Shown one piece after another: positions 12,953 through 29,057 of a stretch of 64,000 nucleotides of DNA (the first letter of the stretch is position 1; each line of letters begins with the position of its first letter). The notes under the pieces were generated by a model. That model had not been told where the DNA came from, made no database searches, and saw only the letters and a list, made by a program, of their open reading frames with translations. The stretch comes from an uncultured Acidimicrobiales bacterium (GTDB lineage: Bacteria > Actinomycetota > Actinomycetes > Mycobacteriales > QHCE01), in contig CAVTOA010000003.1 in assembly GCA_963736285.1 (NCBI GenBank), positions 281,652-345,651 on the forward strand, in the 5' to 3' direction. The position numbers and the translations under genes are program-made.

Positions 12953-13411
12953 TCAACGCAAAGGTGAACGCGCTTCACTGACCGCGGTCCTTACCAAACC
13001 GTGAGAGAACCCAAACACCGTCCCGAAGGGGATTTGAACCAGGCGGCGGCATCTCACCATTACTGCTCTCCGGTCCACAGTGGCGGCCATGACTAGGGAC
13101 GCGTCATCAGTGAGCATGTACGAGCGATATTCACCAAGCGCATGCTGAGCGGCCTCCGTAGCGACGGGAAGCGCGTCGCCCTCCCGCACGCCAACCGCGT
13201 AGACGGCATCCGAGTCAAGCCCGGATGCAGCGGCGATGGCACCTCCGTCGCAGTCTGCTTGCAGGTCACGCTGGGCAAGGAACGCTGACGATGCGGCAGC
13301 TACACCGGCCGTGAGCAAACTCACGATGAGGAAGCACACCAATATAAGGGGAATACTGCTTCCCGCATCACCGTGGATCCGTGCGTGAATACCCGCCAAG
13401 AGCCGTCGCAT
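12953..13411 (-). CDS. TadE/TadG-like pilus assembly (pseudopilin-like) protein
   Basis: Start set at the Met that overlaps the upstream stop (TGATG). N-terminal hydrophobic segment IPLILVCFLIVSLLTAGVAAA. Last gene of the tad operon. Confidence 0.6.
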   Translation of the reverse strand: MRRLLAGIHARIHGDAGSSIPLILVCFLIVSLLTAGVAAASSAFLAQRDLQADCDGGAIAAASGLDSDAVYAVGVREGDALPVATEAAQHALGEYRSYMLTDDASLVMAATVDRRAVMVRCRRLVQIPFGTVFGFSHGLVRTAVSEARSPLR

Positions 13412-13920
13412 CAGACCGCCGCCGTCCGATACGTATCCACATGCACTACAAACCTGCCGGTCACAGTGTTGCGACTGCTGTCCAAAAAGCTTGGCACCCC
13501 CGGAACCGTGAATACCTGAACCACGCATGCGACAAACTCTGCCCCCGGCTCCAACGTGGCCGCACCAGGCGCTGGCGCAACCGGCCCGTTGTCGCACGAT
13601 TGATTGTGTTGGACAAAGCGAAGGAGGGCCTCGCTCGTATCAAGGTTTTGGTCTTGCAACGCCAACCGCACCGCAAAAACCGCACGGTCCACCCCGGTGT
13701 TCACGTTGTCCGCGCTAGCCACAGCACGTCCGGCCTCACGAGCGGCCTGGGTAACAGCGAAGACATTCCGCTGTAGCTCGAACACCGCCACCAACAGGTA
13801 CAGCAGTGGAACCAACACCATGATGCCAAGAAAGACAAATTCGATCGTCGCGGCACCGGTCTCGTCTCGGAACCGACCCAGCACACCACGAAGATTCCTA
13901 GTGCGAGATGGGAGCGTCAA
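13411..13920 (-). CDS. TadE-like protein
   Basis: TadE N-terminal motif GAATIEFVFLGIMVLVPLLYL. Overlaps both neighbouring genes (ATGA and TGATG). Confidence 0.75.
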   Translation of the reverse strand: MTLPSRTRNLRGVLGRFRDETGAATIEFVFLGIMVLVPLLYLLVAVFELQRNVFAVTQAAREAGRAVASADNVNTGVDRAVFAVRLALQDQNLDTSEALLRFVQHNQSCDNGPVAPAPGAATLEPGAEFVACVVQVFTVPGVPSFLDSSRNTVTGRFVVHVDTYRTAAV

Positions 13921-14354
13921 TTTCTTCCCTCCTTGACCGCATGGCCCCGCACCTCTAGTGGCAACACGTCACCCAATGGAGCAAAAAAGACCGGCAACGC
14001 GCCGTCACATCGAACCTCAACGGTCACAATCCCGCCGGTTCCCGTTGCTTGCCTGCCGGTACAGGAGAGCTGGGACGACGCCGATTCGCCTACGCCACGG
14101 CCGAGCAACACCCGGGCGCGACTCGCCCCAGCTGCTGAGGACACATTGGCTGCGGCGGCATAACGTGCGCCCTCAGCAACGCTCGCTGCCGCAACATTGC
14201 GGATGTACAGATATACCGCCACCTGCAGAATCGCCAACGTCAGGAAGATGAGCAGCACAGAGACCAAGGCAAACTCAACGAGCGTGGAGCCCTCCTCTGA
14301 CATCTTTGCGGTCGACACGTGCGCTCTGCGCAAGAAGGACGCCCGGAACGCCAT
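13917..14354 (-). CDS. TadE-like protein
   Basis: TadE motif GSTLVEFALVSVLLIFLTLAILQ, within the tad operon. Confidence 0.75.
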   Translation of the reverse strand: MAFRASFLRRAHVSTAKMSEEGSTLVEFALVSVLLIFLTLAILQVAVYLYIRNVAAASVAEGARYAAAANVSSAAGASRARVLLGRGVGESASSQLSCTGRQATGTGGIVTVEVRCDGALPVFFAPLGDVLPLEVRGHAVKEGRN

Positions 14355-14360
14355 CTCCGC

Positions 14361-14576
14361 CTAACCACCAGTGCCTGAAACCACTTGGCCAATGGCGGTT
14401 TGAACAGCACCAATGATCGCGCCCTTAAACACCGCAAAGACAGCAACAACCAGGCCCGCGGTCATCACCGTAACCATGACCCAGCCAGGAACATCGCCAC
14501 GATCCAGGCCAAGGCGTCGCAGTGACGATATGCGAGCTCGAACGGCCGTGATGGGCCAGCAACGTTGCATCCGCAT
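14361..14576 (-). CDS. Flp-type small pilin candidate
   Basis: Start chosen at the ATG preceded by GGAGG (ORF track extends to 14711). 71 aa with a charged leader ending RG, then DVPGWVMVTVMTAGLVVAVFAVF as a hydrophobic helix. Sits between tadC and the tadE genes. Confidence 0.6.
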   Translation of the reverse strand: MRMQRCWPITAVRARISSLRRLGLDRGDVPGWVMVTVMTAGLVVAVFAVFKGAIIGAVQTAIGQVVSGTGG

Positions 14577-14666: not shown

Positions 14667-14681
14667 CTGTGGATAACTCCC
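14667..14681 (-). promoter_or_regulatory. conserved box GGGAGTTATCCACAG upstream of flp
   Basis: Reads GGGAGTTATCCACAG on the gene strand, about 90-105 nt upstream of the flp start. The same 15-mer occurs at 17963-17977. Confidence 0.6.
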
Positions 14682-14721
14682 ATGCGGCTCGCGGTAGGCA
14701 AGCCAAATCACGCCCGACCCT

Positions 14722-15663
14722 TTATTGCGTCAACACGGTGATGCTCGCCAAGCCCGGGTAAAGAGCAAAAAGGACAGTAACGGGCAAGATCAGAAAGACC
14801 ACCGGTACCATCATCAAGATTTCCTTTCTCCCTCCCGCTGCGAGCAATGCACGCTTGCCCGCTTCTCGAACATCGGCCGCTTGTGCACGCAATAGCTCGG
14901 CCAATGGAGTTCCTCGCTCTAACGCGATCGCCACGCCATCAACAAATCTTGCCAATGGCGGAAGACTCGTGCGTTTGGAAAGTCGCTCCAATGCGGCAGG
15001 CAAGGTGACGCCCTCTCGCGTATTTGAAATGACGATCTTCAACTCTTTAGAGAGCTCACCGCCGCACAAGCGACATACGCGCTCCAGCGCCGCAAGGGGT
15101 GCTTCACCTGCGGTAACCGCAAGCGCGAGGAATTCCGCGACTATTGGAAACTCGGCGAGCATGTCCTGCTCACGACGCCGAACCCGCATGCTGAGCCACC
15201 AGTCATAGCCCAATGCACCCGCCAGAAATCCCGCGATCGCAAGCACGATGAGGGCTATGAGACTCACCGAACTGGCCGCAATAGATAGCAGCACAGATGA
15301 CAAGCCACCCATTACAAATCCAACAACGCCCCACACCAGTTGTTCAACTCGAAAATCCTCGACGCTCGCCGATGAGCCCAACGCGCTTAACCTGCGCTGC
15401 ACTGACCTGGAACCGCCAAGCGATCGCTCCATCATCGCCGCACCTCGCTCAAGAGCCGGCCGCAAAACCGCTAGAGGAACACCCCAAAGATGAAGCGTTT
15501 CATCGCTCTGAGCCAAGTTAGACGACGGCTGACGTGCACGAAGATAGGGAGCTAGGCGATCGTCGAGCCTCACCCGCCTCATTGGCGGTGAATACGCAAT
15601 AGCCACCAGGAGACCGGTGGCTCCAAAGAGGCCCAGTAACGCTCCTAACGCGACAGAGTTCAC
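14722..15663 (-). CDS. tadC: type II secretion F-family pilus assembly membrane protein TadC
   Basis: 313 aa polytopic protein with a T2SSF-like domain. 4-nt overlap with tadB. Confidence 0.8.
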   Translation of the reverse strand: MNSVALGALLGLFGATGLLVAIAYSPPMRRVRLDDRLAPYLRARQPSSNLAQSDETLHLWGVPLAVLRPALERGAAMMERSLGGSRSVQRRLSALGSSASVEDFRVEQLVWGVVGFVMGGLSSVLLSIAASSVSLIALIVLAIAGFLAGALGYDWWLSMRVRRREQDMLAEFPIVAEFLALAVTAGEAPLAALERVCRLCGGELSKELKIVISNTREGVTLPAALERLSKRTSLPPLARFVDGVAIALERGTPLAELLRAQAADVREAGKRALLAAGGRKEILMMVPVVFLILPVTVLFALYPGLASITVLTQ

Positions 15664-16526
15664 TGTAATACTCGCTTCTCTTCAGGCAAACGGCCAATGC
15701 GAACCATTGCGCGATAAGCAAGGATGCTCACAACTGCCCCAAGTAACAGCAGAATTCGGCCCGCAAAAGACTCGTACGCGCTCAAAGTGGCCGACTGAGT
15801 CGCAAGGAGAAGCAGCACGAGCCAAGGGGCAGCGACCGCAAGGCGAGCAGCATTAATGGTCCAATTTTGACGAGTCTCAAGCTCGGCGCGGGTACGACTC
15901 TCGTCACGCAGAAATGTCGATAGAGTCCGTAACAGCCGACCTAAATCTGTTCCCCCTACTTCGCGTGCGAGCCGTAACGACTCGCAGATCCGATCACCAA
16001 CGGGATCTGCGAGGTGAGTCTTGAGCCGATCGAGGCAATCCGAAAATTTGCCGGTAATTCGGTAATCGCTGGCAAAGCGGCCGAATGCGGCCTGGAGGGG
16101 CGCTGGACCCCGTACTGCCAAAGCCGCGACACCTTCTGGCAAGGAGAGGCCCGCGCGGACGGCGGACGCCAGACTGTCCACAACCTCCGGCCATACCTCG
16201 CGGAAATCAAGTCTGCGCCTTCTTCTTAGGCTACCGATCATCCCGACAGGAGAGAAAAACCCGAAGAATACAAAGCATGTGGCCACCGAGATGCTCCGGC
16301 TCAATGCCAACGTCGCCATACCTGCTAGCAAGCCCGCTGCCAGCTGTAGGCACATGACCTGCCACGGGCCCACTCCTGTGATTCCTGCTTGCCGCAGTGC
16401 TGCGGTTCGTCGCGCTTTCCACTTCGCAAGAGAGTCGGGTCGCTCCGGTCGCACGGGCGCACGACTGTGCCACACAAGCAGTACACCCAAGCCAAACAGT
16501 AACCCGATGACGGCGCCCATTAGCAC
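15660..16526 (-). CDS. tadB: pilus assembly membrane protein TadB
   Basis: 288 aa polytopic T2SSF-like protein. Overlaps tadA by 7 nt. Confidence 0.8.
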   Translation of the reverse strand: MLMGAVIGLLFGLGVLLVWHSRAPVRPERPDSLAKWKARRTAALRQAGITGVGPWQVMCLQLAAGLLAGMATLALSRSISVATCFVFFGFFSPVGMIGSLRRRRRLDFREVWPEVVDSLASAVRAGLSLPEGVAALAVRGPAPLQAAFGRFASDYRITGKFSDCLDRLKTHLADPVGDRICESLRLAREVGGTDLGRLLRTLSTFLRDESRTRAELETRQNWTINAARLAVAAPWLVLLLLATQSATLSAYESFAGRILLLLGAVVSILAYRAMVRIGRLPEEKRVLQ

Positions 16527-17881
16527 TCACCATCTCCCGCCGAAACAGAAGTCACCCGATATTTCGGCTCACTTCGGACAGCGTTGAGCAGCCGGACGAT
16601 ATCGATGCCCGCCCGGGTGAACCGCTCCATATTGGATGGGAAGCCATCTGCTCGTACGAGCTCATTGCCTCGAGTCGCAAAGATGTCGACTGATTCGATG
16701 ACTGTGCCCTCAACCCTGCCAGAGAGGGCTACGACTTCCCCTACTCGCCGCCTGCCCTGACTATCGCTGGTGAGGTGAACCACCAGATCAACACTCGCCG
16801 CGACAGTCGGGACAACGAAAGAGGCCGCGACATTGCTGCCTGCCAGCAGCGGGAGCGTACACAGTTTGGTAATCGCTTCTCGGGCTGAATTGGCATGGAC
16901 ACTCGCCATCCCCGGTAGGCCAGAGTTCAATGCTATGAGCAAGTCTAAGCACTCTGCTTGGCGAACCTCACCAACAATAATTCGCGAGGGGCGCATTCGG
17001 AGGGCTTCGCTAATGAGTCTGCGAAGAGGAATCTCCCCCGTTCCTTCCAAGTTTGGCTGACGCGTTTGCATCGGCACCCAATCCCGGGCATTTAGCCGTA
17101 GCTCAAAGACCTCCTCACAACTGATAATTCGATCATGCTGCGGAATCGCACCAGCCAAGCAATTTAAAAGAGTTGTCTTGCCGGCTTGAGTGCCCCCAGC
17201 CACAACGACATTGAGCCCAGCAATTACCGCCGCCTCTAGGAAACACGCTGCGTGCGCGGTCATAGTTCGAAGTGCGACCAGCTCCGTGAGGGACCGGGCT
17301 TTCACGATGAACTTTCGGATATTGACTGCCCAATGTTCCCGTGTGATGTCAGGTATGACTACGTGCAGGCGAGAACCATCTGGCAAAGTGGCATCAACAA
17401 ACGGGGTAGAAAGGTCAATGCGCCGCCCGGTGTGTTTAAGCATCCGTTCGACCAGCTCAGTTACCTGTTGGTAAGTGAGGACAACTGTTGTCAATTCGCT
17501 GCGATTATTGCGCGAGATAAAAACGTGACCGGGATCGTTGATCCATATCTCCTCGACTTCTGGATCGTCCAAAAACTGTTGCAAAGGACCGAGACCAGCA
17601 ACGGCGTCAAAAAGCATTTTTGCAACGCACTCGGCGTCAGACAGGGGCGGCGATATGCCCGCAGCAGCTTGTGTCGCATAGTCGACGATGGCCTGATCAA
17701 TTAGTGCGCGCACTGTGGCGGGCTCACGGGCAGGGTCGATGCCGTCGCGTCGGATCAGCTCATGTAGCACTGACTCCACAATGGCATATGAACCTACGGT
17801 GTTCTCTGCCCTTGTGTGACCTACATGGGCCCGTGATGCAGACTGCTTCGAGATACTGGTCAACGTGTTGGTTAATGCCAC
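16520..17881 (-). CDS. tadA: Tad/Flp pilus secretion ATPase TadA/CpaF
   Basis: 453 aa. Walker A GGTQAGKTTLLN, a CEEVFEL region and a RIIVGEVR box typical of VirB11/CpaF ATPases. Confidence 0.9.
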   Translation of the reverse strand: MALTNTLTSISKQSASRAHVGHTRAENTVGSYAIVESVLHELIRRDGIDPAREPATVRALIDQAIVDYATQAAAGISPPLSDAECVAKMLFDAVAGLGPLQQFLDDPEVEEIWINDPGHVFISRNNRSELTTVVLTYQQVTELVERMLKHTGRRIDLSTPFVDATLPDGSRLHVVIPDITREHWAVNIRKFIVKARSLTELVALRTMTAHAACFLEAAVIAGLNVVVAGGTQAGKTTLLNCLAGAIPQHDRIISCEEVFELRLNARDWVPMQTRQPNLEGTGEIPLRRLISEALRMRPSRIIVGEVRQAECLDLLIALNSGLPGMASVHANSAREAITKLCTLPLLAGSNVAASFVVPTVAASVDLVVHLTSDSQGRRRVGEVVALSGRVEGTVIESVDIFATRGNELVRADGFPSNMERFTRAGIDIVRLLNAVRSEPKYRVTSVSAGDGEC

Positions 17882-17962
17882 CGAAGCTACCTTCTTTATC
17901 CCTGATGGGTTACTAGCCGCCGCACGGATCGAGAGAACACTAGCTGACGGTTCAACCCCGCA

Positions 17963-17977
17963 GGGAGTTATCCACAG
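17963..17977 (+). promoter_or_regulatory. conserved box GGGAGTTATCCACAG upstream of the FtsK-like ATPase
   Basis: In the 254-bp tadA/FtsK-like divergent intergenic region, about 160-173 nt upstream of the GTG start at 18136. Identical to the flp box, and both share the preceding CCGCA. Confidence 0.6.
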
Positions 17978-18135
17978 TCACGCATTGTCAACAACGAACG
18001 CGCAGCGTCCATATGCGACTGCGCACATGCGGATTGTTTTGTCCAGCGGGGGAAAAAACTTGTGGAAAGAAACAGAGAAGTCTCGGCACCTGGGGATAAG
18101 GCGTCATCCGGTGAGAATTCACGCAGACTAGTCGT

Positions 18136-21100
18136 GTGGAATTCCCCATCACTTTCGTGGACTCTTGCGGCGATGAGCATGACCTAACTATCTCTGCGGC
18201 TCACACCACGACTGCGCAGGCCCTCGTGGAAAAGCTTCGCGAAATCGACCCGGACGCCCGCATCGACCGGCTTTACCATCCACAAGGACAATTGCGGGCC
18301 ACCCAGCGCATAGGAGAGCCACCCCTCATAGCCGGAATTCGACTCCAGGCCATGCCCGTCGTCTCGTCACGTGAACCGTCTACTACAGACAAGAAGCGTC
18401 AACGCCTCACCCTCACGGCTTCCCAGGACTTAACCTGTTCTCAATATCCTCCTCATGGCTCGCTACTGCTCCATGTCATAGCAGGACCAGACAGCGGCCA
18501 GGTACACCCGCTCACAAGCCGTAGGGCTACCACAGACAAAGCCCGGAAGTCGACTTCTACATCAGACAATTCGCGCAGCATCACGGTTGGCCGCAGCGAT
18601 TGCGCCGACGTTTCAATTGAAGACCCAGATGTATCGAGTCTTCATGCAAAGATAACAATTCGACCCGGATCTCTGCAGCTATCTGACTTGGGCTCAACCA
18701 ATGGCACGACGTTACAGGGAAGAGCCATTGATGGGCCTGTTGAGCTGTGGCCAGAACAGGTTATTCGGTGCGGCGGAAGCTTATTTGTAGTCTCGACATC
18801 GACATTCCCACCATTGCAACTCAGACCAAACCGCTCTGGCTTTTTGATGCTTGGAAGGCCACCTAGGGTCACTCCTCGCCATGTGCCTCCGGAGTTCAGT
18901 TTTCCTGCTCCCCCAATATCCCCACCTCGCACTCCCATACCGTGGCTATTGGTGATTACACCTTTGCTGATCGGAACTGCCTTCTATTGGATTAGTGGAG
19001 CATTACATGGCGATGGCGCGTACTTTCTTTTGCTCACTTTCCTCTCTCCTCTCATGGTTTTTCTCGGTGGACTAACCGACAAGATTGCTCGGTTTAAGGC
19101 TCACCGAAAAGCAATGTTGCGGCACAATCACGTTGTCGCCGATATAACGCAGGGGATAGCTGCTGCGGTCAGCGACGAGCAACAACGGCTGAGAACCGCA
19201 TTTCCCAGTCCCGCCTTACTCTTCCTCGTGATCTGTCACAGAAATTCGCGCCTGTGGGAACGGCGGCCGCGGGATCACGACAACCTGGTGCTTAGGGTTG
19301 GAACAGCAAACCTCCCCTCCGGACTGCGGATTCATGGAGAAACTGGCAACCGCACTCGCCAGCCGGTGAGCTTGCTTGCCTCACACCGGAAACCTCGGGA
19401 GGCACCCTCTCGAACCCTGGCAAGCGTGCCGGCCACGGTGCCACTCCGTGACGTGGGTGTGTTCGGAGTAGCAGGGCCGAGCCGCCTCGGAGTGGTCCGC
19501 TTCCTTGTCGCGCAACTGGCCGGACTCCACCACCCCAAAAATCTTCGCCTAGTGCTACTGGCAAATAACGACGCACCACAGCGCTGGAAATGGTTTCGGT
19601 GGTTGCCACACGCTGCCACCTCTGGCTCTCATCCGAATGGAGCAACCTTCCACATAGGACTATCGCCAGCTCAAAGGAACAGCAGAGTCGGCGAGCTTGG
19701 ATCGCTCATCACGGAGCGCATTTCCCACGACCCAGAAACGCTCCGGCAGCCAAACCATCACGGGCTCGTAGTGCGGCCAAATTATGTCGTGGTAATCGAC
19801 GACGCTGACCTGCTAAGAACCGAGGAAGGCGTTGCTCGCTTACTCATCGACGGCCCGCGTGTTGGAGTCTATGTGATCTGCCTCACCGAAGATTCGCTGC
19901 GCCTTCCTGAAGAATGCGATGCAACTCTGATCACTACTAATGCACCGGGCGAAGGTGCGACCCTACAGATCCGAAATCAGGCGACTCTATCGTCGATCAC
20001 CACCGAGTCTGTATCCCCAGATTGGACGGACACCATTGCGCGCGCATTGGCTCCACTCCACGACGCGGCCCCTGAAGAGGACCACCTTGACCTACCGCCC
20101 CAAGTCTTCCTAGAGGCGTTCTTGTCAGAGATTCACGCCAGGCACCGCGTTTACGTTGAAGCGCGCACCCCTTCCCGCAGACACTGGTCCAAAGCTCATC
20201 AGTCGCATGTCGAGCCATTAGTGCCGGAGAACGTGCACCAGCATTGGCTCGATAAGCCACGCTCATCGCTTGTTCCGGTCGGCATTGGCTCGGCCGGAAC
20301 GGTCGCTATCGACCTCATAAAAAACGGTCCACACGCTCTGATCGCAGGAACGACAGGGTCAGGAAAGTCGGAACTTTTGCAAACCATCATCCTTGGATTG
20401 GCCCTGGGTAATCACCCTCACGAGCTTTCTTTCATACTCATTGACTACAAAGGTGGCGCGGCTTTTTTCGAATGCGACGACCTGCCACACACGGTTGGGC
20501 TTGTCACCGATCTCGACAGTCAATTGACGAGACGTGCTTTGTCCTCGCTTCGGGCGGAGCTACGAAACCGGGAAAAAATCCTCGCGGCTCACCAGATGAA
20601 AAACCACGAAAGCTACTGCATCGCACGCGACCAGGCCTCGCCGCATACACAACCGCCCCGCGCTCACACTTCTACCTGGCCTCACATGGCCCGTCTCGTC
20701 ATCGTTGTCGACGAGTTTGCCGCACTGGCTCAAGAACTCCCTGAGTTCATCACAGGGCTTGTCGACATAGCGCGACGCGGACGTTCTCTAGGAGTGCACC
20801 TCATCCTCGCAACTCAACGTCCTGCGGGCGTGGTTTCGACGGAGATCCGTGCGAACACCGCGCTCCGAATGTGCCTGAGAGTGAACGATCCAGCTGAAAG
20901 TAGCGACGTCATCGGGGCAGTCGATGCCGCTCAACTCAGTCACACGCGGCCTGGTCGTTGTTGGATCCGGACCGGCAATACGTTGCAGCAGGTACAAGTT
21001 GCCTACGGCGGTGTCACTCCCCCCGTCGCCACAAGTGCCTCAGATGTCGACATAAGACATATGCCGTGGGAGGCGCTAGGAGACTCCTTGCAGGAGTTCA

Positions 21101-22824
21101 GCTCGTCGGGCCTCGCAAACGAAAGGGAGGCGGACGCCACTCGAATTGTGTCCACTCTTCGGCTTGCCGCAGCGCCTATCGCACCTCTGCCAAGCCCGTG
21201 GCTACCACCGCTTCCTCGCTTGATCACTCTTACTGAGCTGCTGACTTATTCCGGGAGGCCGCATTCACGCCCCGACTCCATCGATCGCGAGTCTCGGTGG
21301 TGCCTGGCTCCTGTTGGCTTACAGGACATACCTGACGAGCAACGGCGTGCTCTCTACGGACTGTCTCTACGCGGCTCTGTGAGATCCCCCGCCAGCCAAG
21401 ACGGCACCCTATCCAGTGCAGTGCCACTACCTGCGGCAACGAGCGCAGGTGGACCGTCAGATGCGGTGCACCACATCATGTTTGTTGGCGGACCGCATAG
21501 CGGGAAGACATCTGCGTTACGAATGCTGGCAGTCAGCGCCGCACAGTTTGCGACGCCCGAAGAGATGCAGATCTACGTGCTGGACTGTGCAAACGGCGAC
21601 TTGGCTGACCTCGAATATTTGCCCCATTGTGCTGGCATCGCCCACCATCTAGATCTGGAACACGGCGAGCGTTTGCTATACAGCCTGGCAAAAAACACAT
21701 CAACGATCGCGCCGGCAGACCGCCGTGGCGACAAGCCGGCAAAGATACTTCTGATCGACTCTTGGGAGGGTTTCTCTGAAAGCTATGGGTCTGTCGGCCA
21801 TGGTGAGCTCATGGACCTGCTTGGCCTCCTCTTGAGGACCGGTCCGTCCGCCGGAGTGCGGGTGGCAATAACAGGCGGCCGCGCTCTGGCAACAGCTCGG
21901 TTTGCAAGCCACATCACTGAGCGACTCATCCTGCCCTTCGCTGATGTGGACAGCTACTGTTCCCTCGGAGTCCCGAAAGACCAGATCCCCACCAACCCAC
22001 CCCCTGGCAGAGCTTTACGCATGGGTAGACAGATTACCGAAATTCAGCTCGCCGCCACCCAGGCAGTGCCACAGGCCGATCAACGCTCCCAAAAGGAGCT
22101 CGGACCCCGACGAATGATGCCCCTGCCTCAGCACGTAAGACTAGAGGAGCTTGAGCCCCAAGTAGAGCGAGCTCCTCACGCGGCGACACCTGCCGTAATT
22201 TTGGGCATCGGTGGTGAATACGCCCAACCGTTCCAGATAAACTTCGACGACATTACCTCCGGATTGTTGGTGGTCGGTCCACCAGCAAGTGGGCGTACAA
22301 ATACACTTCGGCTCTTTGCACACGCTGCCAGTCAAGCAGCTCGCCAATTTTTTGTCATTTCTTCCCAGAAAACAGAATGGCAGCTGGGGCAAGCGGATAT
22401 ACAACACTCCTATGTGGCCTCTCACCGAGAACCAACGGATGGCCATTGCTTCAGTACAAGCGGCATAGCCGAGCTGGAAAACGCCTTGAAAACGCAAGCG
22501 ACCAAACCCGCGATCATTATCGTCGACGACGCTCAACAGCTCCTGGACACTGAAATGGGAGAACGGCTGTCCACCCTCGCACGAACCGGTGAGCACACAG
22601 TGATTGCGAGTGTCGCCACAGAGGACTTACATAACGCTTTTCGGGGACTCATTCACGAACTACGACGCGCCCACACCGCACTTCTGTTATGGCCCAAGTA
22701 CCACGATGGCTCTCTCTTCGACCTGCAACTAAGTCGCGCAATTGGCCTGCGCTACCCAGGGCGTGGGCTCTACATCGCGCGCGGAAACGCCACACCCATA
22801 CAGCTCGCCCGCATAGGAAGCTGA
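18136..22824 (+). CDS. FHA-domain FtsK/SpoIIIE-family (EssC/EccC-like) membrane ATPase with four P-loop-type domains
   Basis: 1562 aa. FHA-like segment (ITVGRSDCADVSIEDPDVSSLHAKI...GSTNGTTLQG) and two TM helices (IPWLLVITPLLIGTAFYWISG, YFLLLTFLSPLMVFLGGL). One degenerate P-loop domain (GVAGPSRLG ... VVVIDDAD) is followed by Walker A GTTGSGKS with IVVDEF, GGPHSGKT, and GPPASGRT with IIIVDDAQ. Confidence 0.85.
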   Translation: MEFPITFVDSCGDEHDLTISAAHTTTAQALVEKLREIDPDARIDRLYHPQGQLRATQRIGEPPLIAGIRLQAMPVVSSREPSTTDKKRQRLTLTASQDLTCSQYPPHGSLLLHVIAGPDSGQVHPLTSRRATTDKARKSTSTSDNSRSITVGRSDCADVSIEDPDVSSLHAKITIRPGSLQLSDLGSTNGTTLQGRAIDGPVELWPEQVIRCGGSLFVVSTSTFPPLQLRPNRSGFLMLGRPPRVTPRHVPPEFSFPAPPISPPRTPIPWLLVITPLLIGTAFYWISGALHGDGAYFLLLTFLSPLMVFLGGLTDKIARFKAHRKAMLRHNHVVADITQGIAAAVSDEQQRLRTAFPSPALLFLVICHRNSRLWERRPRDHDNLVLRVGTANLPSGLRIHGETGNRTRQPVSLLASHRKPREAPSRTLASVPATVPLRDVGVFGVAGPSRLGVVRFLVAQLAGLHHPKNLRLVLLANNDAPQRWKWFRWLPHAATSGSHPNGATFHIGLSPAQRNSRVGELGSLITERISHDPETLRQPNHHGLVVRPNYVVVIDDADLLRTEEGVARLLIDGPRVGVYVICLTEDSLRLPEECDATLITTNAPGEGATLQIRNQATLSSITTESVSPDWTDTIARALAPLHDAAPEEDHLDLPPQVFLEAFLSEIHARHRVYVEARTPSRRHWSKAHQSHVEPLVPENVHQHWLDKPRSSLVPVGIGSAGTVAIDLIKNGPHALIAGTTGSGKSELLQTIILGLALGNHPHELSFILIDYKGGAAFFECDDLPHTVGLVTDLDSQLTRRALSSLRAELRNREKILAAHQMKNHESYCIARDQASPHTQPPRAHTSTWPHMARLVIVVDEFAALAQELPEFITGLVDIARRGRSLGVHLILATQRPAGVVSTEIRANTALRMCLRVNDPAESSDVIGAVDAAQLSHTRPGRCWIRTGNTLQQVQVAYGGVTPPVATSASDVDIRHMPWEALGDSLQEFSSSGLANEREADATRIVSTLRLAAAPIAPLPSPWLPPLPRLITLTELLTYSGRPHSRPDSIDRESRWCLAPVGLQDIPDEQRRALYGLSLRGSVRSPASQDGTLSSAVPLPAATSAGGPSDAVHHIMFVGGPHSGKTSALRMLAVSAAQFATPEEMQIYVLDCANGDLADLEYLPHCAGIAHHLDLEHGERLLYSLAKNTSTIAPADRRGDKPAKILLIDSWEGFSESYGSVGHGELMDLLGLLLRTGPSAGVRVAITGGRALATARFASHITERLILPFADVDSYCSLGVPKDQIPTNPPPGRALRMGRQITEIQLAATQAVPQADQRSQKELGPRRMMPLPQHVRLEELEPQVERAPHAATPAVILGIGGEYAQPFQINFDDITSGLLVVGPPASGRTNTLRLFAHAASQAARQFFVISSQKTEWQLGQADIQHSYVASHREPTDGHCFSTSGIAELENALKTQATKPAIIIVDDAQQLLDTEMGERLSTLARTGEHTVIASVATEDLHNAFRGLIHELRRAHTALLLWPKYHDGSLFDLQLSRAIGLRYPGRGLYIARGNATPIQLARIGS

Positions 22825-22896: not shown

Positions 22897-24537
22897 TTAC
22901 CCCATGTGGGGATACCGATAGTCGACGGGGGGAACAAACGTCTCCTTAACGACCCTCGGTGAGACCCATCGCAACAAATTGAGCACGCTTCCCGCTTTGT
23001 CGTTTGTTCCGCTTGCCCTCGCACCACCAAACGGCTGCTGACCTACAACTGCCCCAGTCGGTTTGTCATTGACATAAAAGTTGCCTGCTGAAAACCGCAA
23101 TATTTCACTCGCTCGACTCACCGCATGTCGGTCGGTGGAAAAAATGGAACCAGTGAGCGCGTACTTGGCAACATGTGCTGCCTGCCGAGTAACGGAATCG
23201 AAGGATGCATCGTCATACACAAATACGGAGAGAATCGGCCCAAAGTACTCAGTGGTAAAGACATCGTTGCCTGCCTCGTTACACACCACCACGGTAGGAC
23301 GCACAAAATAGCCCACGCTATCGTCCGTTAACCCGCCAGCACGTACCGAACATGCGGTGTCCGATTTGATGCGTTCCATTACGGTGGACAATCGGTCGAA
23401 AGACCTTCTGTCGATGACCGCCCCACCAAACTGAGTGAAGTCAGCGACATCACCGTAAGGAAGTCCCTCGGCTGTGGCTACCAGCTGATCACCCAGGCCG
23501 CCTTCCCACATCGACCGTGGCACATATGCACGTGAGGCCGCCGAGCACTTCTGCCCCTGATATTCGAAGGCACCCCGAACTAATGCGGTGTGAACCGCCA
23601 TCGGATCCGCACTGGGATGCGCGATCACGAAGTCTTTCCCGCCTGTCTCACCCACAAGACGCGGATAGGTGTGATAGCGGTCAATCTTTTGCCCAACGGT
23701 GCGCCACAAGTGTTGGAAGGTTCGGGTCGAGCCAGTGAAATGTATGCCCGCCAAGCTGGAATGAGCCAAGGCCACTCGCGACACCGCTTCACCATCGCCG
23801 GTGACCATATTGATCACTCCAGGTGGTAGCCCTGCGGCCTCCAGCAATCGCATCGTGTAATGCGCGGCCAGCTGCTGAGTAGGTGACGGCTTCCACACCA
23901 CAGTGTTGCCCATCAGCGCTGGAGCCAGCGGTAGATTGCCGGCGATTGCGGTGAAATTGAAGGGGGTGATCGCCAAGACAAAACCTTCAAGAGGGCGATG
24001 ATCGAATTGGTTCCATACTCCTGCCGAAGACCGGGGCTGCTCGGTGAGGATTTTCTGTCCAAACGCGACATTAAACCGCATAAAATCGATCAGCTCGCAG
24101 GCAGAATCGGCCTCTGCCTGAATAACGGTCTTGGACTGGCCGAGCATAGTTGTGGCATTTAACACATCACGCCAAGGACCCGCCAGCAAATCGGCGGCAC
24201 GCAAAAGCACTGCGGCACGATCCCCAAACGATGTGGAACGCCACCCGGGTGCGGCGGACAAAGCGGCATCGATGGCTTTAGCAACATCCGAATCCGTGGC
24301 CTGCCTCAATGTCCCTAAGACATGACGATGATTATGCGGCTGTACCACGGAGACTTGTTCGCCTTCGCCGATCAGCTCTTGGCCACCAATGGTATGGGTC
24401 AGCCGCATCTCGCGATCGGCATGAGCGGCCAGGGCGTTGACTAGCGCCGCACGTTCAGGGCTGTCTGGTGCGTAGTCCCGCATCGGCTCGTTCGTGGGTT
24501 CAGGAACGGCTAGCAATGCGTCCATCGAATGAGGCAT
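22897..24537 (-). CDS. pruA: L-glutamate gamma-semialdehyde (1-pyrroline-5-carboxylate) dehydrogenase
   Basis: 546-aa aldehyde dehydrogenase. VGETGGKDF and QGQKCSA catalytic Cys region. Length and sequence fit actinobacterial PruA/RocA. Confidence 0.85.
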   Translation of the reverse strand: MPHSMDALLAVPEPTNEPMRDYAPDSPERAALVNALAAHADREMRLTHTIGGQELIGEGEQVSVVQPHNHRHVLGTLRQATDSDVAKAIDAALSAAPGWRSTSFGDRAAVLLRAADLLAGPWRDVLNATTMLGQSKTVIQAEADSACELIDFMRFNVAFGQKILTEQPRSSAGVWNQFDHRPLEGFVLAITPFNFTAIAGNLPLAPALMGNTVVWKPSPTQQLAAHYTMRLLEAAGLPPGVINMVTGDGEAVSRVALAHSSLAGIHFTGSTRTFQHLWRTVGQKIDRYHTYPRLVGETGGKDFVIAHPSADPMAVHTALVRGAFEYQGQKCSAASRAYVPRSMWEGGLGDQLVATAEGLPYGDVADFTQFGGAVIDRRSFDRLSTVMERIKSDTACSVRAGGLTDDSVGYFVRPTVVVCNEAGNDVFTTEYFGPILSVFVYDDASFDSVTRQAAHVAKYALTGSIFSTDRHAVSRASEILRFSAGNFYVNDKPTGAVVGQQPFGGARASGTNDKAGSVLNLLRWVSPRVVKETFVPPVDYRYPHMG

Positions 24538-24597
24538 GCCATCATCCTGGCACGCTCTCCGTTTTCCGGGGAGGCCTGCGCGTTTTCCGATCTCTCC

Positions 24598-25308
24598 CTA
24601 CCGAGAGGCTGGCGCCACCACATCAATGCCCTTTAGAGCACTGACAGCGCTCGGGTCAGCTAACGACGAAACTAGTAAATGCGCCGGAAGACGCACACCC
24701 TCTACAGAGGGTGCACCGATTACGAACAAACCCGCAGACTTGGCCGAACTCACACCCGGTTGCGAATCTTCAATAGCGATGGCCCATTCTGGTTCCACAT
24801 TGAGTTTTTGGCAGGCAAGCAGATACGGATCCGGCGCCGGTTTTGACGCCAATACATCGTCCGCACCGATCACTACGTCGAACGCGTCCCACAGCCCCAC
24901 GCCGCTCAACGCCCGTTGCACAAAACGTCGAGATGAATTCGAGGCCACCGCCATAGGTACCATGCCGTGCAACGATTTCACCAGCTCAAGCACTCCGGGC
25001 ATGGCCACAACATCGTGTAACTGACGCTCTGTCATGGCATATAGCCGAGCCAACAACTCCCTACCCTGACCGGGCATTTCCAACAACCGCTCCAAAATAT
25101 GAAGGGTCTGTTCTGCCGATTTCCCCAGCACCTCTTGCTTATGCTCTGGTCCAAATACTTTGCCGAACTCCGCAAACAATGCCACTTCGGACTTGGAAAA
25201 CAACGCTTCGGTGTCTACCAACACGCCATCGCAATCGAAGACAATGGCTCGTGGGGGGCATGGGGGTCGTCTATCGCTAGAAATTGTGAGGACACCCGGA
25301 TCACTCAT
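24598..25308 (-). CDS. HAD-superfamily hydrolase
   Basis: Motif I DCDGVLVD, and a later AIEDSQPG motif. Start set at the Met whose ATG overlaps the upstream stop (TGATG). ORF track extends to 25359. Confidence 0.8.
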   Translation of the reverse strand: MSDPGVLTISSDRRPPCPPRAIVFDCDGVLVDTEALFSKSEVALFAEFGKVFGPEHKQEVLGKSAEQTLHILERLLEMPGQGRELLARLYAMTERQLHDVVAMPGVLELVKSLHGMVPMAVASNSSRRFVQRALSGVGLWDAFDVVIGADDVLASKPAPDPYLLACQKLNVEPEWAIAIEDSQPGVSSAKSAGLFVIGAPSVEGVRLPAHLLVSSLADPSAVSALKGIDVVAPASR

Positions 25309-25811
25309 CAGTTTGTCTCCAGCGAGAGCAATTGGTCCACTTCGGATATGTCGTACCACTCCAACTCGTACTCGTCGGCGGAATCGACAGTAAACTCCGC
25401 GTCCGGATCGCCTAGCTCGGCTGGCAGCACCGCACGCACCGCCGCGTCAATCGTGGTCTGTGCATCTTCGCCGTCTATGTGGACGCATGCGGCTGCGGAG
25501 TAAGGAATCTTTGTGTTCACCCGCACGACCGAACGATCTAAATCGGCTCGTTCTGCTACGTGCTCACTGTCTACATCGACTGAAACCACCACACGCCGAC
25601 GTGCGGCGCCCGAATCAGCGTCAAGCAACCTCAGCGAAGCCCTCGCAGCATCGAGGAAAGCCGCGTATTCCAATTCGTCGATGTCGTTATCTGGGTACCA
25701 ATCACGCGTAGCGGAGGTGACAGCGAATCCGGTGACCGGAACAGGGCCTAAAGCGCCATCATTTTTAAATCCCCGCAGCCCTTGAATCGTTGTTGGTAAG
25801 TAGACGCGCAC
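25308..25811 (-). CDS. conserved actinobacterial hypothetical protein
   Basis: 167-aa acidic ORF, translationally coupled to the HAD gene. No family recognised. Confidence 0.55.
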   Translation of the reverse strand: MRVYLPTTIQGLRGFKNDGALGPVPVTGFAVTSATRDWYPDNDIDELEYAAFLDAARASLRLLDADSGAARRRVVVSVDVDSEHVAERADLDRSVVRVNTKIPYSAAACVHIDGEDAQTTIDAAVRAVLPAELGDPDAEFTVDSADEYELEWYDISEVDQLLSLETN

Positions 25812-25867
25812 TATGCCCCCATCAATCGCCTGCTCGAGCGGCTCATTATGCCGAACTGCTCTGACAT

Positions 25868-26905
25868 TTAGACCCTCACGCTAGCGAGCTGCTGGCGAAG
25901 TAGCCGCAATGACGTTTCCTGAGCCACCTCGATAACGAGAGACCTACGCGACACGTCCATCAAGTTCGCCCCCATCGCCGTCAGATCATCCAAACCCGGG
26001 CACAGTACGTATACCTTGGCGCCGCTCCTTATGATGTGCTCCATCTCTCGACGCAAACGCCGCGTCACCGAACGCCTCCATCGACGCTCAAGACGTGCCA
26101 ACATTCCTGTCGGTGAATCCAATGCAAAGGCCGCCAGCGGTGCTACTACATAGATCTCATCCAGATTCTCTTGTGCGAGCAAATCTGCTGACGTCGACGA
26201 ATACATTCCGCCATCGACGTAACGTCGCCCATCAATGTCGACCGGTGTAAACCAGCCAGGAATGGCACACGAGGCTCCGACCGCCGCCGGCAACGAGGGA
26301 AACGGCGAGCCAGCTCGCCCGAATGCCACTCGCTCGCCAGAGTCGTAATTCATCGCCACTATCCACAATGCGGGATGCGGCGCCCATGTGCGTTGTGGAC
26401 CCAGGGCCAGTTCAACGATGTCCTCGATCGGCGCCAGAGAACCACGCCCAAGGGGCAACAGTGCCGACAGGGCCGCACGCGGCGTAATGCTTCGAGGATT
26501 GCGCAAAGCCGTGAGCAACAGCCTCATAGAACCCGGGCGCAAATGAGGCCGGCTAGGGCGTGGACGTCCTCCGTTGAGCTCATCGTTGTAGTCGATGAGG
26601 AAGTCGCCCGGCGCGGGCGCACCCATCTGTTGACGCAACATCATTGGCACTGATATGCCGCAGCCCAGCACGGATCCCACAAGTGCGCCAGCTGACGTGC
26701 CGACGATGATGTCGACTTGCCGGCAGTCTAAGCCCGTGGATTTTTCTAACGCGGCCAGCGCCCCTACCATCCAGGCATACCCGAGAACACCTCCACCGCC
26801 GAGGACAAGACCGCGCCGTACTTGATCTCCGTCTACCACGGTCTCATCTTCCCCCTCGTCACGACGGTTGCGCGGAAAGGCGCCGCCTTTCCTGGCTGCT
26901 GCCAC
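25868..26905 (-). CDS. patatin-like phospholipase
   Basis: Oxyanion GGGGVLG, nucleophile elbow GTSAG and catalytic DGG motif. Confidence 0.85.
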   Translation of the reverse strand: MAAARKGGAFPRNRRDEGEDETVVDGDQVRRGLVLGGGGVLGYAWMVGALAALEKSTGLDCRQVDIIVGTSAGALVGSVLGCGISVPMMLRQQMGAPAPGDFLIDYNDELNGGRPRPSRPHLRPGSMRLLLTALRNPRSITPRAALSALLPLGRGSLAPIEDIVELALGPQRTWAPHPALWIVAMNYDSGERVAFGRAGSPFPSLPAAVGASCAIPGWFTPVDIDGRRYVDGGMYSSTSADLLAQENLDEIYVVAPLAAFALDSPTGMLARLERRWRRSVTRRLRREMEHIIRSGAKVYVLCPGLDDLTAMGANLMDVSRRSLVIEVAQETSLRLLRQQLASVRV

Positions 26906-28175
26906 CGGACATCAGTGCCGGGGATCCGACCAATGACTCGGCAATCTGGGCGAGACGCACCCGAAGACGAGATTCTGGCGCTACCTCTGCAAGGGTTCGC
27001 CCTACCGCCACCGCTCGATCCGCCGCCAGCTGATCGTGAGGCAATTGCTGCGCATTAATGACTCCCGCATACCGCTTTAGCGCAGCCATTACCTCCTGCT
27101 CCGGATCGCCGGGGACCACACCACGGCGGGTCTTATTAACCACCACGTGGCGTGTCGTATCGGGCACTATCCCCGCTAACTCGTCCAGACCCCGGATCAG
27201 CCTGCCCATGCCCACCGGATCAGCCGCTCCGACCGCCACCACAATGTCAGAAGAAGCCAAAGCCGCCAATGTGGCTCCATTACGTCTAGGTGCCATAGTG
27301 TCGTAGGACAGTTCTTCGTCTGTCTCTAAGCAAAATCCGCAGTCGATGACAGTGAACGCAGCAAGCTCCCGCGCTCGAGCCAGCACCGCCATCAACGAAT
27401 CCGGACGCAGCTCCACCCACCTCTCAGGTCGCGTAATTCCCGTCAAAACCCTCAACTGAGGATGGATAGCCCTGGCCAAGCCGGCGAGTGCTGGTATGTC
27501 TAGCGCACCATTATTGGCCAAGTGAGCTGCGGCAGCGATGCCCGGCGCCTCGTCCAGCATGCTAAGCATTTGGGCAATCGTCCCCCCATAAGAATCCGCA
27601 TCTATCAGTAATGTCGGAACGCCCAATCGAGCGGCTTCATCCGCCAATCCGATTGCCAGAGTGGTACGGCCGGGTGCACCGGTCGGACCCCACACCGCTA
27701 CTACTCGTCCCGGTGCCGCAGGTGAAATTGGACCACGGTTGTCCGCAGGTAGAGACGCTGAAAAGAGAGCCGCTCGAGGGTCGGCTGGCATGTGTCGCGC
27801 AGACGAAGGCCGCATTTGTGCCGCACCCCGAATAAGAGCTTCTGCCACAAGCGCTGCTGGAGATCGCAAAGGCAAGACCTGCGTCAGACCCAGTTGACGT
27901 AGCCGCCGCTCCCCCGCTTCGTCGTGTGCATCGACCAGCCCCACGATGGCGACGCCGGCCGCATATAGCCGAGTGAGTATCTCGTGATCGAGATGTCGAA
28001 GGTCCGCGGAGAGCAAGGCCGCACGCGCAACGCCGACCGATGCCGTGGCTAGAAGATCCGCAACGTCAGCACATCTGCGCACTACGGCAATCCCATGCTC
28101 GGCTTGACCCAGTGCGGTGACCAAGGCAGCCTCGAGCTCGGCATTAGTGACGGCGGTCAGTACTGGCAAATCCAT
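26859..28175 (-). CDS. CpaE/TadZ- or Ssd-like ParA/MinD-family ATPase
   Basis: N-terminal receiver-like domain followed by the deviant Walker A VVAVWGPTGAPGRTTLAIGLA. Resembles M. tuberculosis Rv3660c in its tad context. Confidence 0.75.
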   Translation of the reverse strand: MDLPVLTAVTNAELEAALVTALGQAEHGIAVVRRCADVADLLATASVGVARAALLSADLRHLDHEILTRLYAAGVAIVGLVDAHDEAGERRLRQLGLTQVLPLRSPAALVAEALIRGAAQMRPSSARHMPADPRAALFSASLPADNRGPISPAAPGRVVAVWGPTGAPGRTTLAIGLADEAARLGVPTLLIDADSYGGTIAQMLSMLDEAPGIAAAAHLANNGALDIPALAGLARAIHPQLRVLTGITRPERWVELRPDSLMAVLARARELAAFTVIDCGFCLETDEELSYDTMAPRRNGATLAALASSDIVVAVGAADPVGMGRLIRGLDELAGIVPDTTRHVVVNKTRRGVVPGDPEQEVMAALKRYAGVINAQQLPHDQLAADRAVAVGRTLAEVAPESRLRVRLAQIAESLVGSPALMSGGSSQERRRLSAQPS

Positions 28176-28214
28176 AACTCTGGCCTTCTTCGTTTAATTT
28201 GCGGTCTTGATCGC

Positions 28215-29057
28215 TCATTGATGAGAAGCCATGTTGTGGGAGCTCCGCTGGTTAGCCGGCACATTGCTTGAAGACGTGGGATGCGTCGGTGGCGGCACGG
28301 ATGCGGAAGAGCTAGCCCTTGGATCCGCTTTAGCGCCGCCCAACTTCGTAGGCTCGCACAATGACGTTCGGGTGGTGGAGCCCGCGGATAGCGTGACATC
28401 GATCTCCGCCGCCCGGACCGCGTTGACAACGCGCGAAGTGGTGTCCGACGCCACCCAGACTGTCAGCGACCATTCGCCTGTGTCGGAAAGACCCGAATGA
28501 GGCGAGGTCACGTCTTGCACGGTGGCGCTCTGCAGTACTCGCTCTGTCTGGCCTGCCCTGTTGTCTCGAGGGCTGGCAAAAACATCGACACGCCGGCCCC
28601 GGGTGACAGAAGGCGGAAGGTGGTGCGATGCCACCGGAATGCTCACCAAGGCACCACAGGCCGCGACACGCAATGCACCACGAGGGATGAGCTCATGCGC
28701 TGACACATCTCTCACCAGTGTCTTTCCGGTCACAACTTGTGTGTCGGCGAAATATTGCGCTGAGCCCCTGGGTAGCCGCACGCTTACTCGTTCAATATCT
28801 GCGGCAGTCAGCGTTGCGCCCGCAGCAGTGTCGTGCCGTACTGCCCACACAAGCGTCGAGTGGTCGGCGGACGCAACAACACGTGCACCGAGAGCGACCG
28901 AGACGAGCAACAGAAGGACACCACACACAAGACGAATGTTGAGCCATGTGGGCATCCGAGTACGGGTGGCGCTAGGAGAGGCGAAGTGCCCCTCACCCGC
29001 CGCACGTAACGGACCCTCCGTTGCTTTGATCGCAGAGGGCGACGACACCTGACTCAT
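28215..29057 (-). CDS. SAF-domain protein (CpaB/RcpC-like pilus assembly protein)
   Basis: Start set at the Met preceded by GGAGAGG (ORF track extends to 29321). One TM helix, then a SAF-like segment (AAGATLTAADIERVSVRLP...VTGKTLVRDVSAHELI). Directly upstream of the cpaE-like gene. Confidence 0.65.
   Translation of the reverse strand: MSQVSSPSAIKATEGPLRAAGEGHFASPSATRTRMPTWLNIRLVCGVLLLLVSVALGARVVASADHSTLVWAVRHDTAAGATLTAADIERVSVRLPRGSAQYFADTQVVTGKTLVRDVSAHELIPRGALRVAACGALVSIPVASHHLPPSVTRGRRVDVFASPRDNRAGQTERVLQSATVQDVTSPHSGLSDTGEWSLTVWVASDTTSRVVNAVRAAEIDVTLSAGSTTRTSLCEPTKLGGAKADPRASSSASVPPPTHPTSSSNVPANQRSSHNMASHQ

Follow-up and report, generated by a model that had tools for sequence, protein, structure and literature searches.

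A type VII secretion-type ATPase linked to a split Tad pilus locus in an uncultured actinobacterium, with a possible supporting role in a Tad competence machine

What does a giant membrane ATPase do between the two halves of a Tad/Flp pilus locus? The question is raised by a stretch of 64,000 nucleotides (hereafter the window; about 58% GC) from an uncultured Acidimicrobiales bacterium, an actinobacterium (contig CAVTOA010000003.1), in which the tad genes occupy two minus-strand blocks with a plus-strand gene for a 1562-aa ATPase between them. The original prediction, made from the sequence alone, had described this arrangement, a 254-bp divergent gap between tadA and the ATPase gene and a shared upstream box, and had proposed a combined module of pilus and translocase, working either as a DNA-uptake motor or in protein export. 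A gene map based on the open reading frame (ORF) listing and on Pfam and NCBIfam scans of the window located all the genes at or close to the positions given in that prediction. We assign the ATPase to the kind seen in type VII secretion systems (T7SS), and with high confidence, judging from sequence comparison across genomes, its gene is linked to, and has a cis-element in common with, a tad-1-type Tad machine; we lean towards the view that it supports that machine in competence.

The ATPase gene (18136..22824, plus strand, as are all its domains) encodes a protein in which Pfam recognized an FHA domain, an FtsK_SpoIIIE domain and further P-loop domains, and its full layout runs from a ubiquitin-like (Ubl) domain and the FHA domain through two transmembrane (TM) helices and a DUF domain to three P-loop domains. 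The TM helices (residues 268-286 and 295-313; 18937..19074) were located by a hydropathy scan. The first ATPase domain, D1 (20233..21015; PF01580), has intact motifs, with Walker A GTTGSGKS at residue 738 and Walker B VIVVDEF from residue 854, and domains D2 and D3 (21433..22821), recognized by Pfam, profile and motif reading, carry GGPHSGKT at 1118 and GPPASGRT at 1381. A family profile built from 24 homologues and compared with solved structures, colinear with EccC, YukB and EccC5, aligned end to end with T. curvata EccC (4NH0, E 1e-171, profile positions 372-1452), B. subtilis YukB (E 1e-143) and EccC5 (E 1e-129, positions 203-1454), and FtsK structures matched a single ATPase domain only (E 1e-34). 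The protein thus displays the TM helices, DUF domain, three P-loops and colinearity with EccC expected of the EccC/EssC superfamily. It does not have the single motor with a C-terminal gamma domain that characterizes FtsK/SpoIIIE translocases, as Pfam found neither FtsK gamma nor any other DNA-binding domain in it. Its scores stayed below the curated equivalog cut-offs (TIGR03928 EssC, 481 vs 778 bits; TIGR03924 EccCa, 319 vs 509; TIGR03925 EccCb, 266 vs 347), which places it in a separate branch. On these sequence grounds we assign it with high confidence to a broad actinobacterial family of T7SS-type ATPases related to T7SSd, the system of Olsenella and Bifidobacterium made of TsdA, TsdC, TsdD, TsdH plus TsdI (Garrett, Higginson and Palmer 2024, PMC11217815).

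The head of the protein sets it apart. Residues 1-75 (18136..18360) were predicted by AlphaFold2 as a beta-grasp domain of beta-beta-alpha-beta-beta order, with a predicted local distance difference test score of about 90. The models were computed on a 43-sequence alignment, and the Ubl domain was modelled separately after a two-domain model had matched FHA folds only; with the separate model, the top PDB matches in Foldseek were ubiquitin, NEDD8 and SUMO (TM-score 0.6-0.7). A hidden Markov model (HMM) of the domain matched 53 of 79 family members, including a Bombiscardovia protein from a locus arranged as published for T7SSd. In the database the window protein is 1532 aa long and begins 30 residues further in, so that the first strands of the domain would be cut. 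The FHA domain that follows (residues ~110-240; 18463..18855; PF00498, with FHA structures also found by Foldseek) has G152, R153, S167 and N189 invariant and H170 nearly invariant across the family at the phosphothreonine-binding positions, and is predicted from these residues to be one that can bind phosphothreonine. The models support a fused Ubl-FHA head with high confidence. Such a fusion of an N-terminal Ubl domain to the ATPase is previously unreported: T7SSd was stressed to be without a ubiquitin-like component, and no fusion was reported (PMC11217815). At the window locus the fused domain is the sole recall of YukD or of the EccD N-terminus.

Partners of a T7SS were sought with Pfam on most window ORFs of at least 150 aa; custom HMMs for WXG100 and T7SS-signal proteins were run on every six-frame ORF of 40 aa or more. 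No WXG100 or T7SS-signal gene was found in the 64 kb (best custom-HMM E = 0.04), and among the ORFs scanned by Pfam there was no EccB, EccD, EccE, MycP (mycosin), EssA, EssB, EsaA or YukD, and no Pkinase match to a TsdD-type Ser/Thr kinase. As no other window ORF exceeds about 1200 aa except Mfd, a large TsdI-like gene is also missing. Of the T7SSd set, the window therefore holds the TsdC-type ATPase with its N-terminal, phosphothreonine-competent FHA domain, and not TsdD, the single-TM TsdH or the large Ig-repeat TsdI alongside it. The earlier statement that the ATPase belongs to neither the canonical Tad nor the canonical T7SS gene set was thus right about the absent canonical partners, including WXG100, EccB/D/E, EssA/B and mycosin; it did not hold insofar as it put the protein outside the T7SS world, given its EccC/EssC type and the WXG100 or T7SS-signal genes beside most of its homologues.

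Neighbourhoods of these homologues were surveyed in 81 loci (L001 and 80 from a scan of species-representative genomes), in which ORFs were called and clustered and recurrent clusters annotated; ORF calls in the high-GC loci are crude, and the loci are phylogenetically non-independent. A WXG100-like ORF was present in 60 of the 81, mostly adjoining the ATPase gene, and was confirmed by Pfam beside it in L089 and in three loci from the window protein's own tree group (L003, L040, L074). T7SS_signal proteins and Ser/Thr kinases were frequent neighbours in Streptomyces loci, and EccB/D/E, MycP and EssA/B were absent from the 22 most recurrent neighbour clusters (20 representatives scanned, the other two being TadA and PruA). 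Of the 81 loci, 26-27 encoded TadA within 10 kb and 15 had both TadA and WXG100; the TadA-linked loci came from Streptosporangiales, Actinacidiphila/Streptomyces, Jiangellales, "Mycobacteriales" metagenome-assembled genomes (MAGs), Intrasporangiaceae and Blastococcus.

The adjacency of ATPase and tad genes spans at least six actinobacterial orders and at least four arrangements. The ATPase gene is divergent from tadA in the window, L001, L002, L014, L059, L061, L088 and L089; it is divergent from SAF-Ssd-tadA and the genes that follow, with WXG100 downstream, in Streptosporangiales; all genes are co-directional with tad first in L019; and all are co-directional with the ATPase gene first in L032. 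The arrangement in L088 and L089 was confirmed by independent gene calls with precomputed Pfam, and in all of the nearest relatives looked up singly (L001, L088, L089) tadA is divergent from the ATPase gene. The closest homologue, 37% identical, lies in L001 within the same split synteny, which also recurs in L002 apart from patatin, so the split did not arise as an artefact of assembly. A distance tree places the window protein together with those of L001, L002, L003, L012, L014, L040, L074, L059 and L061. The family is thus found neither inside complete canonical T7SS loci nor generally unlinked to tad genes, and the proposal that ATPase and tad genes form one module is strengthened by the breadth of the adjacency and by the Micrococcus luteus point mutation described below.

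The 254-bp gap between tadA and the ATPase gene (17882..18135) forms a divergent control region without a credible ORF. Two ORFs of 88 and 70 aa in it, considered as WXG100 genes, were rejected, as they were not helical-hairpin-like and had no HMM match, and a sigma-70 promoter scan of the region found nothing. What the gap does contain is a box of 11-13 nt, GTTRTCCACAG, that lies upstream of several window genes. One copy, GGGAGTTATCCACAG, points at the ATPase gene (17963..17977, plus), a weaker one, TTTCCACAA, points at tadA (~18060-18068, minus), and an exact 15-nt copy of the first, GGGAGTTATCCACAG, is located upstream of flp (14667..14681, minus). A degenerate pair lies between SAF and the small regulator gene HTH_17 (29134..29175), with GTTTTCCACAA at 29134-29144 (plus) and CTGTCCACAG at 29166-29175 (minus). 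A third copy, TTGAGTTATCCACAG, identical at 13/15 positions (36776..36790, minus), lies about 50 nt upstream of a gene for a ComFC-like protein (35946..36725, minus), with a double zinc ribbon and a phosphoribosyltransferase domain (Pfam DZR_2 and Pribosyltran, both weak), and hints from its position that the regulon may reach a competence-type gene. The 13-mer occurs three times in the window against 0.001 expected from a Markov model of its sequence. GTT[AGT]TCCACA matched 23 times in the 81 loci, against 2.3 in shuffles, and 13 of the 23 fell in the 5.5% of sequence immediately upstream of the ATPase gene. Copies precede tadA and flp in L001 (the latter being GTTGTCCACAG), occupy the same SAF/HTH_17 intergenic position in L002, L040 and L074, and, in L003, precede a WXG100 gene; in M. 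luteus-like contigs a divergent pair, CTGTGGACAAC-N26-GTTGTCCACAG, is located in the gap between tadA1 and the ATPase gene. The box upstream of the ATPase gene recurs in distant actinobacteria, including M. luteus. The shared upstream box of the original prediction is thus present, and its sharing by ATPase and tad genes and its conservation across genera are, from sequence, assigned with high confidence; the HTH_17 protein is the likeliest candidate for binding it. A literature search on the box returned unrelated PCR primers only.

Functional data are available for counterparts of both halves of the locus in M. luteus. Mlut_07490, adjoining and divergent from tadA1 of tad-1, encodes an ATPase of the FtsK/SpoIIIE family that has two TM helices, and G327E in this protein, re-introduced alone, lowered transformation at least 1000-fold with the comEA/EC promoter still active (PMC8467076, Torasso Kasem 2021). 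Mlut_14650 (SAF), in an operon with Mlut_14640 (CpaE-like), is essential for transformation, its knockout causing a 1e4-fold drop; Mlut_14660 (HTH_17), divergent from that operon, is a candidate com repressor, and mutations in and around it change com gene expression and transformability (PMC8467076). The tad-1 cluster contains TadE/F-type pseudopilins only, yet it is required together with tad-2 for Flp pili and transformation, for a reason that the 2015 study left unexplained (PMC4322843, Angelov 2015).

A homology search seeded with the Terrabacter protein listed Intrasporangiaceae, Geodermatophilaceae and similar taxa, with M. luteus not among the matches listed. The M. luteus homologue was located by back-translating the published peptide AAAAPAVAPWE and scanning metagenome contigs, six of which matched, with 73-75% GC. 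The ORF at 3487-6486 of L084 (999 aa) has G at residue 327 and AAAAPAVAPWE at residue 741, which identifies it as Mlut_07490 or a near-identical orthologue. Its product is colinear with the window protein: a degenerate vestige of the FHA domain is followed by two TM helices, a D1 that is 40% identical and a remnant of D2; D3 is absent and the Ubl domain is not detectable. The M. luteus-like contigs keep the same gene order, with the ATPase gene divergent from TadA (56% identical to that of the window), TadB (51%), TadC and TadE, and with prfB further on.

The other half of the window matches the second M. luteus locus. The SAF/CpaB-like gene (28215..28955, minus; weak SAF, FlgA and CpaB matches, pilus_cpaB 17.7 vs a cut-off of 71) is the positional counterpart of Mlut_14650; its start codon is uncertain, 28955 being favored over the alternative 29057 by alignment with L001, and an HMM of the SAF neighbours in TadA-linked loci matched it at 2e-9. 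The gene for an Ssd/CpaE/TadZ-like ParA-type ATPase (26859..28175, minus; TIGR03815 51.6 bits vs a cut-off of 154, weak CbiA/AAA_31) is the positional counterpart of Mlut_14640. Divergent from SAF, the HTH_17 gene (29379..29618, plus; PF12728, E 3.8e-15), encoding an excisionase-family DNA-binding protein, is the counterpart of the com regulator Mlut_14660, and proteins of this kind (79-114 aa) are very highly conserved and always encoded divergently from SAF in L001 (23332-23598), L002, L040 and L074. Judged by sequence and gene order, two competence loci that are separate in M. luteus have their counterparts together in the window.

From this evidence the reading we favor, with moderate confidence, is that ATPase, tad-1-type machine, SAF/Ssd pair and HTH_17 regulator form a conserved co-regulated module in which the T7SS-like ATPase supports a Tad competence machine. 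The module would comprise TadA/B/C, a Flp-like pilin, TadE/F/G-like pseudopilins, the SAF/CpaB-like and Ssd/CpaE-like pair and the small HTH_17 regulator, all with the same box, GTTRTCCACAG, upstream. The ATPase would act as a protein-export or assembly motor for the Tad competence pilus, perhaps moving WXG100-type or pilus-associated proteins or supplying energy for passage through the wall, and a Ser/Thr kinase with its gene elsewhere may gate its activity by way of the FHA domain.

Several observations weigh against this reading. Two thirds of the family loci have no tad genes within 10 kb, and neither the 64 kb nor the surroundings of the gene in the closest relative, L001, contained a WXG100 or other T7SS substrate gene. 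The M. luteus protein has neither D3, the substrate-recognition domain in EccC, nor Ubl and yet is needed for transformation, which would fit a non-canonical role. comEA and comEC are not in the 64-kb window. A competence role for the window ATPase and Tad genes is suggested by analogy with the M. luteus mutants, and the tie to piliation is likewise an inferred one. Finally, the core of the box equals the actinobacterial DnaA-box consensus, TTGTCCACA; a plain DnaA box may be the identity of GTTRTCCACAG, although this would leave its enrichment at these promoters unexplained.

A bolder form of the favored reading, which we regard as unlikely though worth stating, holds that a T7SS ATPase of the EssC/EccC type has been recruited as an integral part of the tad-1 transformation apparatus, either as the inner-membrane motor that DNA import still lacks or as an exporter building the wall-spanning pseudopilus, in one composite nanomachine under an HTH_17/box regulon. 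We give similarly limited credence to an independent T7SSd-like secretion system, active in antagonism or wall remodelling, that is co-located and co-regulated with Tad and nothing more. The WXG100, T7SS_signal and kinase neighbours in the Tad-less majority of loci and the T7SSd layout in Bombiscardovia (L064) speak for such a system, as does the adjacency of T7SS and Tad genes (T7SSg/h, Bacillota), which was reported without explanation by Garrett et al. 2024, who left the independent option open there (PMC11217815). However, mutating the ATPase affects transformation in M. luteus in a similar way to tad-1 mutations (PMC8467076), the adjacency survives several rearrangements, and the window and its closest relative L001 have the ATPase gene with no substrate gene nearby.

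The original prediction had found a DNA-uptake motor attractive. Under that explanation the ATPase would be the cytoplasmic-membrane motor of Tad-dependent transformation, in a role like that of ComFA in Firmicutes, and we consider it somewhat less probable again. The drop in transformation in the Mlut_07490 G327E mutant with an active comEA/EC promoter (PMC8467076) agrees with it, and the M. luteus orthologue keeps D1 and has lost D3 and Ubl, suggesting that T7SS substrate recognition is dispensable; the box copy upstream of the ComFC-like gene and the lack of a WXG100 gene in the window point the same way, the missing D3 in M. luteus and the missing WXG100 gene here even favoring a non-canonical cargo. 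In the FtsK superfamily, moreover, FtsK, SpoIIIE and Streptomyces TraB pump DNA. On the other hand, the colinearity of the window protein with EccC extends to the DUF and the three tandem ATPase domains, and the protein has neither a gamma nor another DNA-binding domain; most homologues lie beside WXG100 or T7SS-signal genes; and failed pilus assembly would explain the transformation defect equally well. The architecture gives no positive sign of the first of the two functions proposed originally, the ATPase probably not pumping DNA itself, and makes export or assembly the better reading.

Coincidental synteny and gene decay are both unlikely. Inherited synteny in the core region from prfB to secA, without function and with the box as a chance or DnaA-type site, would agree with the conserved housekeeping context on both sides (smpB-ftsX-ftsE-prfB and secA-hpf-comF-mtrBA) and with the many family members without tad neighbours, but the gene sets stay adjacent in four arrangements, among orders as far apart as Streptosporangiales, Micrococcales and Jiangellales, the box is enriched beyond chance and the M. 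luteus genetics points to a common function, so that we find this account very improbable. Decay of the gene, as what remains of a T7SS lost from a reduced genome, seems just as improbable, for although no WXG100, kinase or other partner lies in the 64 kb, the genome appears small (1.5-Mb contig) and the M. luteus orthologue is shortened, the 1562-codon ORF is intact despite assembly frameshifts elsewhere, its catalytic motifs and FHA residues are all conserved, and so is the upstream box.

The tad block beside the ATPase gene, entirely on the minus strand, begins with tadA (16520..17881; PF00437 T2SSE), tadB (15660..16526) and tadC (14722..15663; both PF00482 T2SSF), encoding a secretion ATPase of tad-1 type and two platform proteins. 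The best NCBIfam match of TadA was TIGR03819 (257 bits vs a cut-off of 373), and all TadA proteins scored from ATPase-linked loci reached about 230-257 bits on this model (cut-off 373), so they are relatives, and not members, of the Rv3659c equivalog; the TadA/B/C set of a tad-1-type Tad/Flp system is present, and orthology with tad-1 rests on identity and synteny. A small Flp-like pilin candidate of about 71 aa follows (14361..14576, an ORF reading with the motif RGDVPGWVMVTVMTAGLV), conserved in L001 (as a 63-aa called gene) and in L059; it had no Pfam match and reads RG/DVPGWVMV in place of the canonical G/XXXXEY site. A typical Flp is likewise missing from M. luteus tad-1 (PMC4322843). Pseudopilins of all three types were found: TadE (13917..14354; PF07811, 38 bits), a TadE/F-like protein (13411..13920) with the class-III signal motif ETGAATIEF, including GAATIEF, before a hydrophobic helix and with a tblastn match in the M. 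luteus-like contig L083, and a TadG-like protein (12953..13597; PF13400 Tad, 21.4 bits, marginally below the cut-off) whose true start is probably near 13411, judging from the 142-aa homologue in L001. Pfam detected no Peptidase_A24 match to a prepilin peptidase TadV among the window ORFs scanned, and in M. luteus this gene is also located elsewhere (PMC4322843). A terminator-like hairpin (12945-12924) lies 3' of the last tad gene, and a gene for a PadR-family regulator (12308..12853, minus; Pfam PadR and Vir_act_alpha_C) stands directly downstream of the block and before prfB, in the same place as in L001.

Four passenger genes on the minus strand, all identified by Pfam, fill the space between the ATPase gene and the SAF/Ssd pair: PruA (22897-24537), HAD (24598-25359), DUF6912 (25308-25811) and patatin (25868-26905). 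From PruA to patatin (22897..26905) and on through SAF-Ssd the genes overlap or are separated by short gaps, and from this spacing the four are probably co-transcribed with SAF-Ssd as one long operon. PruA and DUF6912 also stand beside the ATPase gene in L001, L002, L003, L012, L040 and L074, and patatin does so in L001, L002, L003 and L012, whereas L014 and L080 have PruA without DUF6912; in several distant relatives PruA and DUF6912 keep their place between Ssd and the ATPase gene, in some of them with patatin; the window HAD gene had no tblastn match in any homologous locus. A functional tie of these passengers to the pilus is not evident.

Core housekeeping genes flank the locus, smpB-ftsX-ftsE-prfB at one end and secA-hpf-comF-like-mtrBA at the opposite end, where the ComFC-like gene sits between mtrB and hpf-secA. 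Two essential genes, secA (31830-34700) and eno (48259-49361), are broken into several ORFs, with SecA domains in at least three of them and the C-terminal domain of enolase on its own, which points to indel errors in the assembly, a long-read MAG being probable, rather than to pseudogenes; some gene boundaries elsewhere in the window may be off for the same reason.

Other features were noted in the homologous loci. Neighbour cluster c2 (846 aa), considered as a T7SS core component, was set aside, being a membrane-anchored LysM protein without a match in the window. Its members (L007, L010, L015, L019, L020 and others; e.g. 44-2890 in L010) have 800-1000 aa, N-terminal TM helices and a LysM-like segment, and their C-terminus looks SARP-like by sequence; c2, a possible dedicated regulator, closes the tad operon in Streptosporangiales and adjoins the ATPase gene in several Tad-less Streptomyces loci. 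In L089 a prophage-like block (1-6479; serine recombinase, HNH protein, large terminase and portal protein) comes straight after tadC, at the expected position of the pseudopilins. A longer conserved element, GARTTGTCCACATCGYGA, with the TTGTCCACA core in common, lies near cold-shock and MqnA genes of Streptomyces loci (L005, L008, L013, L034 at 16976, L037, L038, L042, L049, L053, L057, L073 and L075) and appears unrelated to the ATPase promoter box.

Should the favored reading hold, a known transformation gene of M. luteus would encode a T7SS-type ATPase and not an FtsK-like DNA translocase, making secretome and piliation assays relevant. It would also speak to the question raised by Garrett et al. 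about the coincidence of T7SS and Tad genes, as here the genes stay linked through rearrangements in different orders and have a cis-element in common. The ubiquitin-like component "missing" from T7SSd-like systems may be the Ubl domain that is fused to the ATPase, and the GTTRTCCACAG box, the HTH_17 regulator and an FHA/phosphothreonine input would together be a candidate control circuit for the poorly understood competence of actinobacteria.

Among known systems, FtsK, SpoIIIE and TraB share with the window ATPase a P-loop motor of RecA-like fold and GTTGSGKS as Walker A motif, but the window protein has three ATPase domains in tandem where they have one, lacks a gamma (KOPS-binding) domain, and has two TM helices, not four. 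It is closer to EccC of T7SSa and EssC/YukB of T7SSb, having the two TM helices, the DUF and the three FtsK/SpoIIIE-type ATPase domains; it differs in scoring below the equivalog cut-offs, in the absence of EccB/D/E, MycP and EssA/EssB/EsaA from the window, in having one FHA domain where EssC has two, and in a Ubl domain that is fused to the ATPase and not to EccD or free as in YukD. The Bacillota systems in which a T7SS ATPase gene is linked to a full tad set, with a meaning equally unexplained, belong to another phylum, have ATPases without FHA and a separate ubiquitin-like TsxB, and come with no reported genetic phenotype or shared regulatory box.

T7SSd shares with the window an actinobacterial EssC-like ATPase whose N-terminal FHA domain keeps its phosphothreonine-binding residues, without a free-standing ubiquitin-like protein, and the Bombiscardovia locus L064, with its T7SSd layout, belongs to the same protein family. 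It differs in the WXG100 protein (TsdA), kinase (TsdD) and large TsdI-like gene that the window lacks, in that the description of T7SSd includes no tad genes, and in the Ubl fusion found here. The tad-1/Mlut_07490 region of M. luteus has the ATPase gene divergent from tadA-tadB-tadC-(flp)-tadE near prfB, with a box in the divergent gap, and M. luteus also has, as in the window, an HTH_17 gene divergent from SAF and CpaE-like genes. In M. luteus, however, the SAF/CpaE/HTH_17 genes lie about 0.8 Mb from tad-1, whereas in the window the two sets are contiguous with only patatin, DUF6912, HAD and PruA between them. The M. luteus ATPase has 999 aa and a degenerate FHA domain where the window protein has the full 1562-aa architecture, and published work treats it as an FtsK-like DNA translocase and not as a T7SS-type ATPase.

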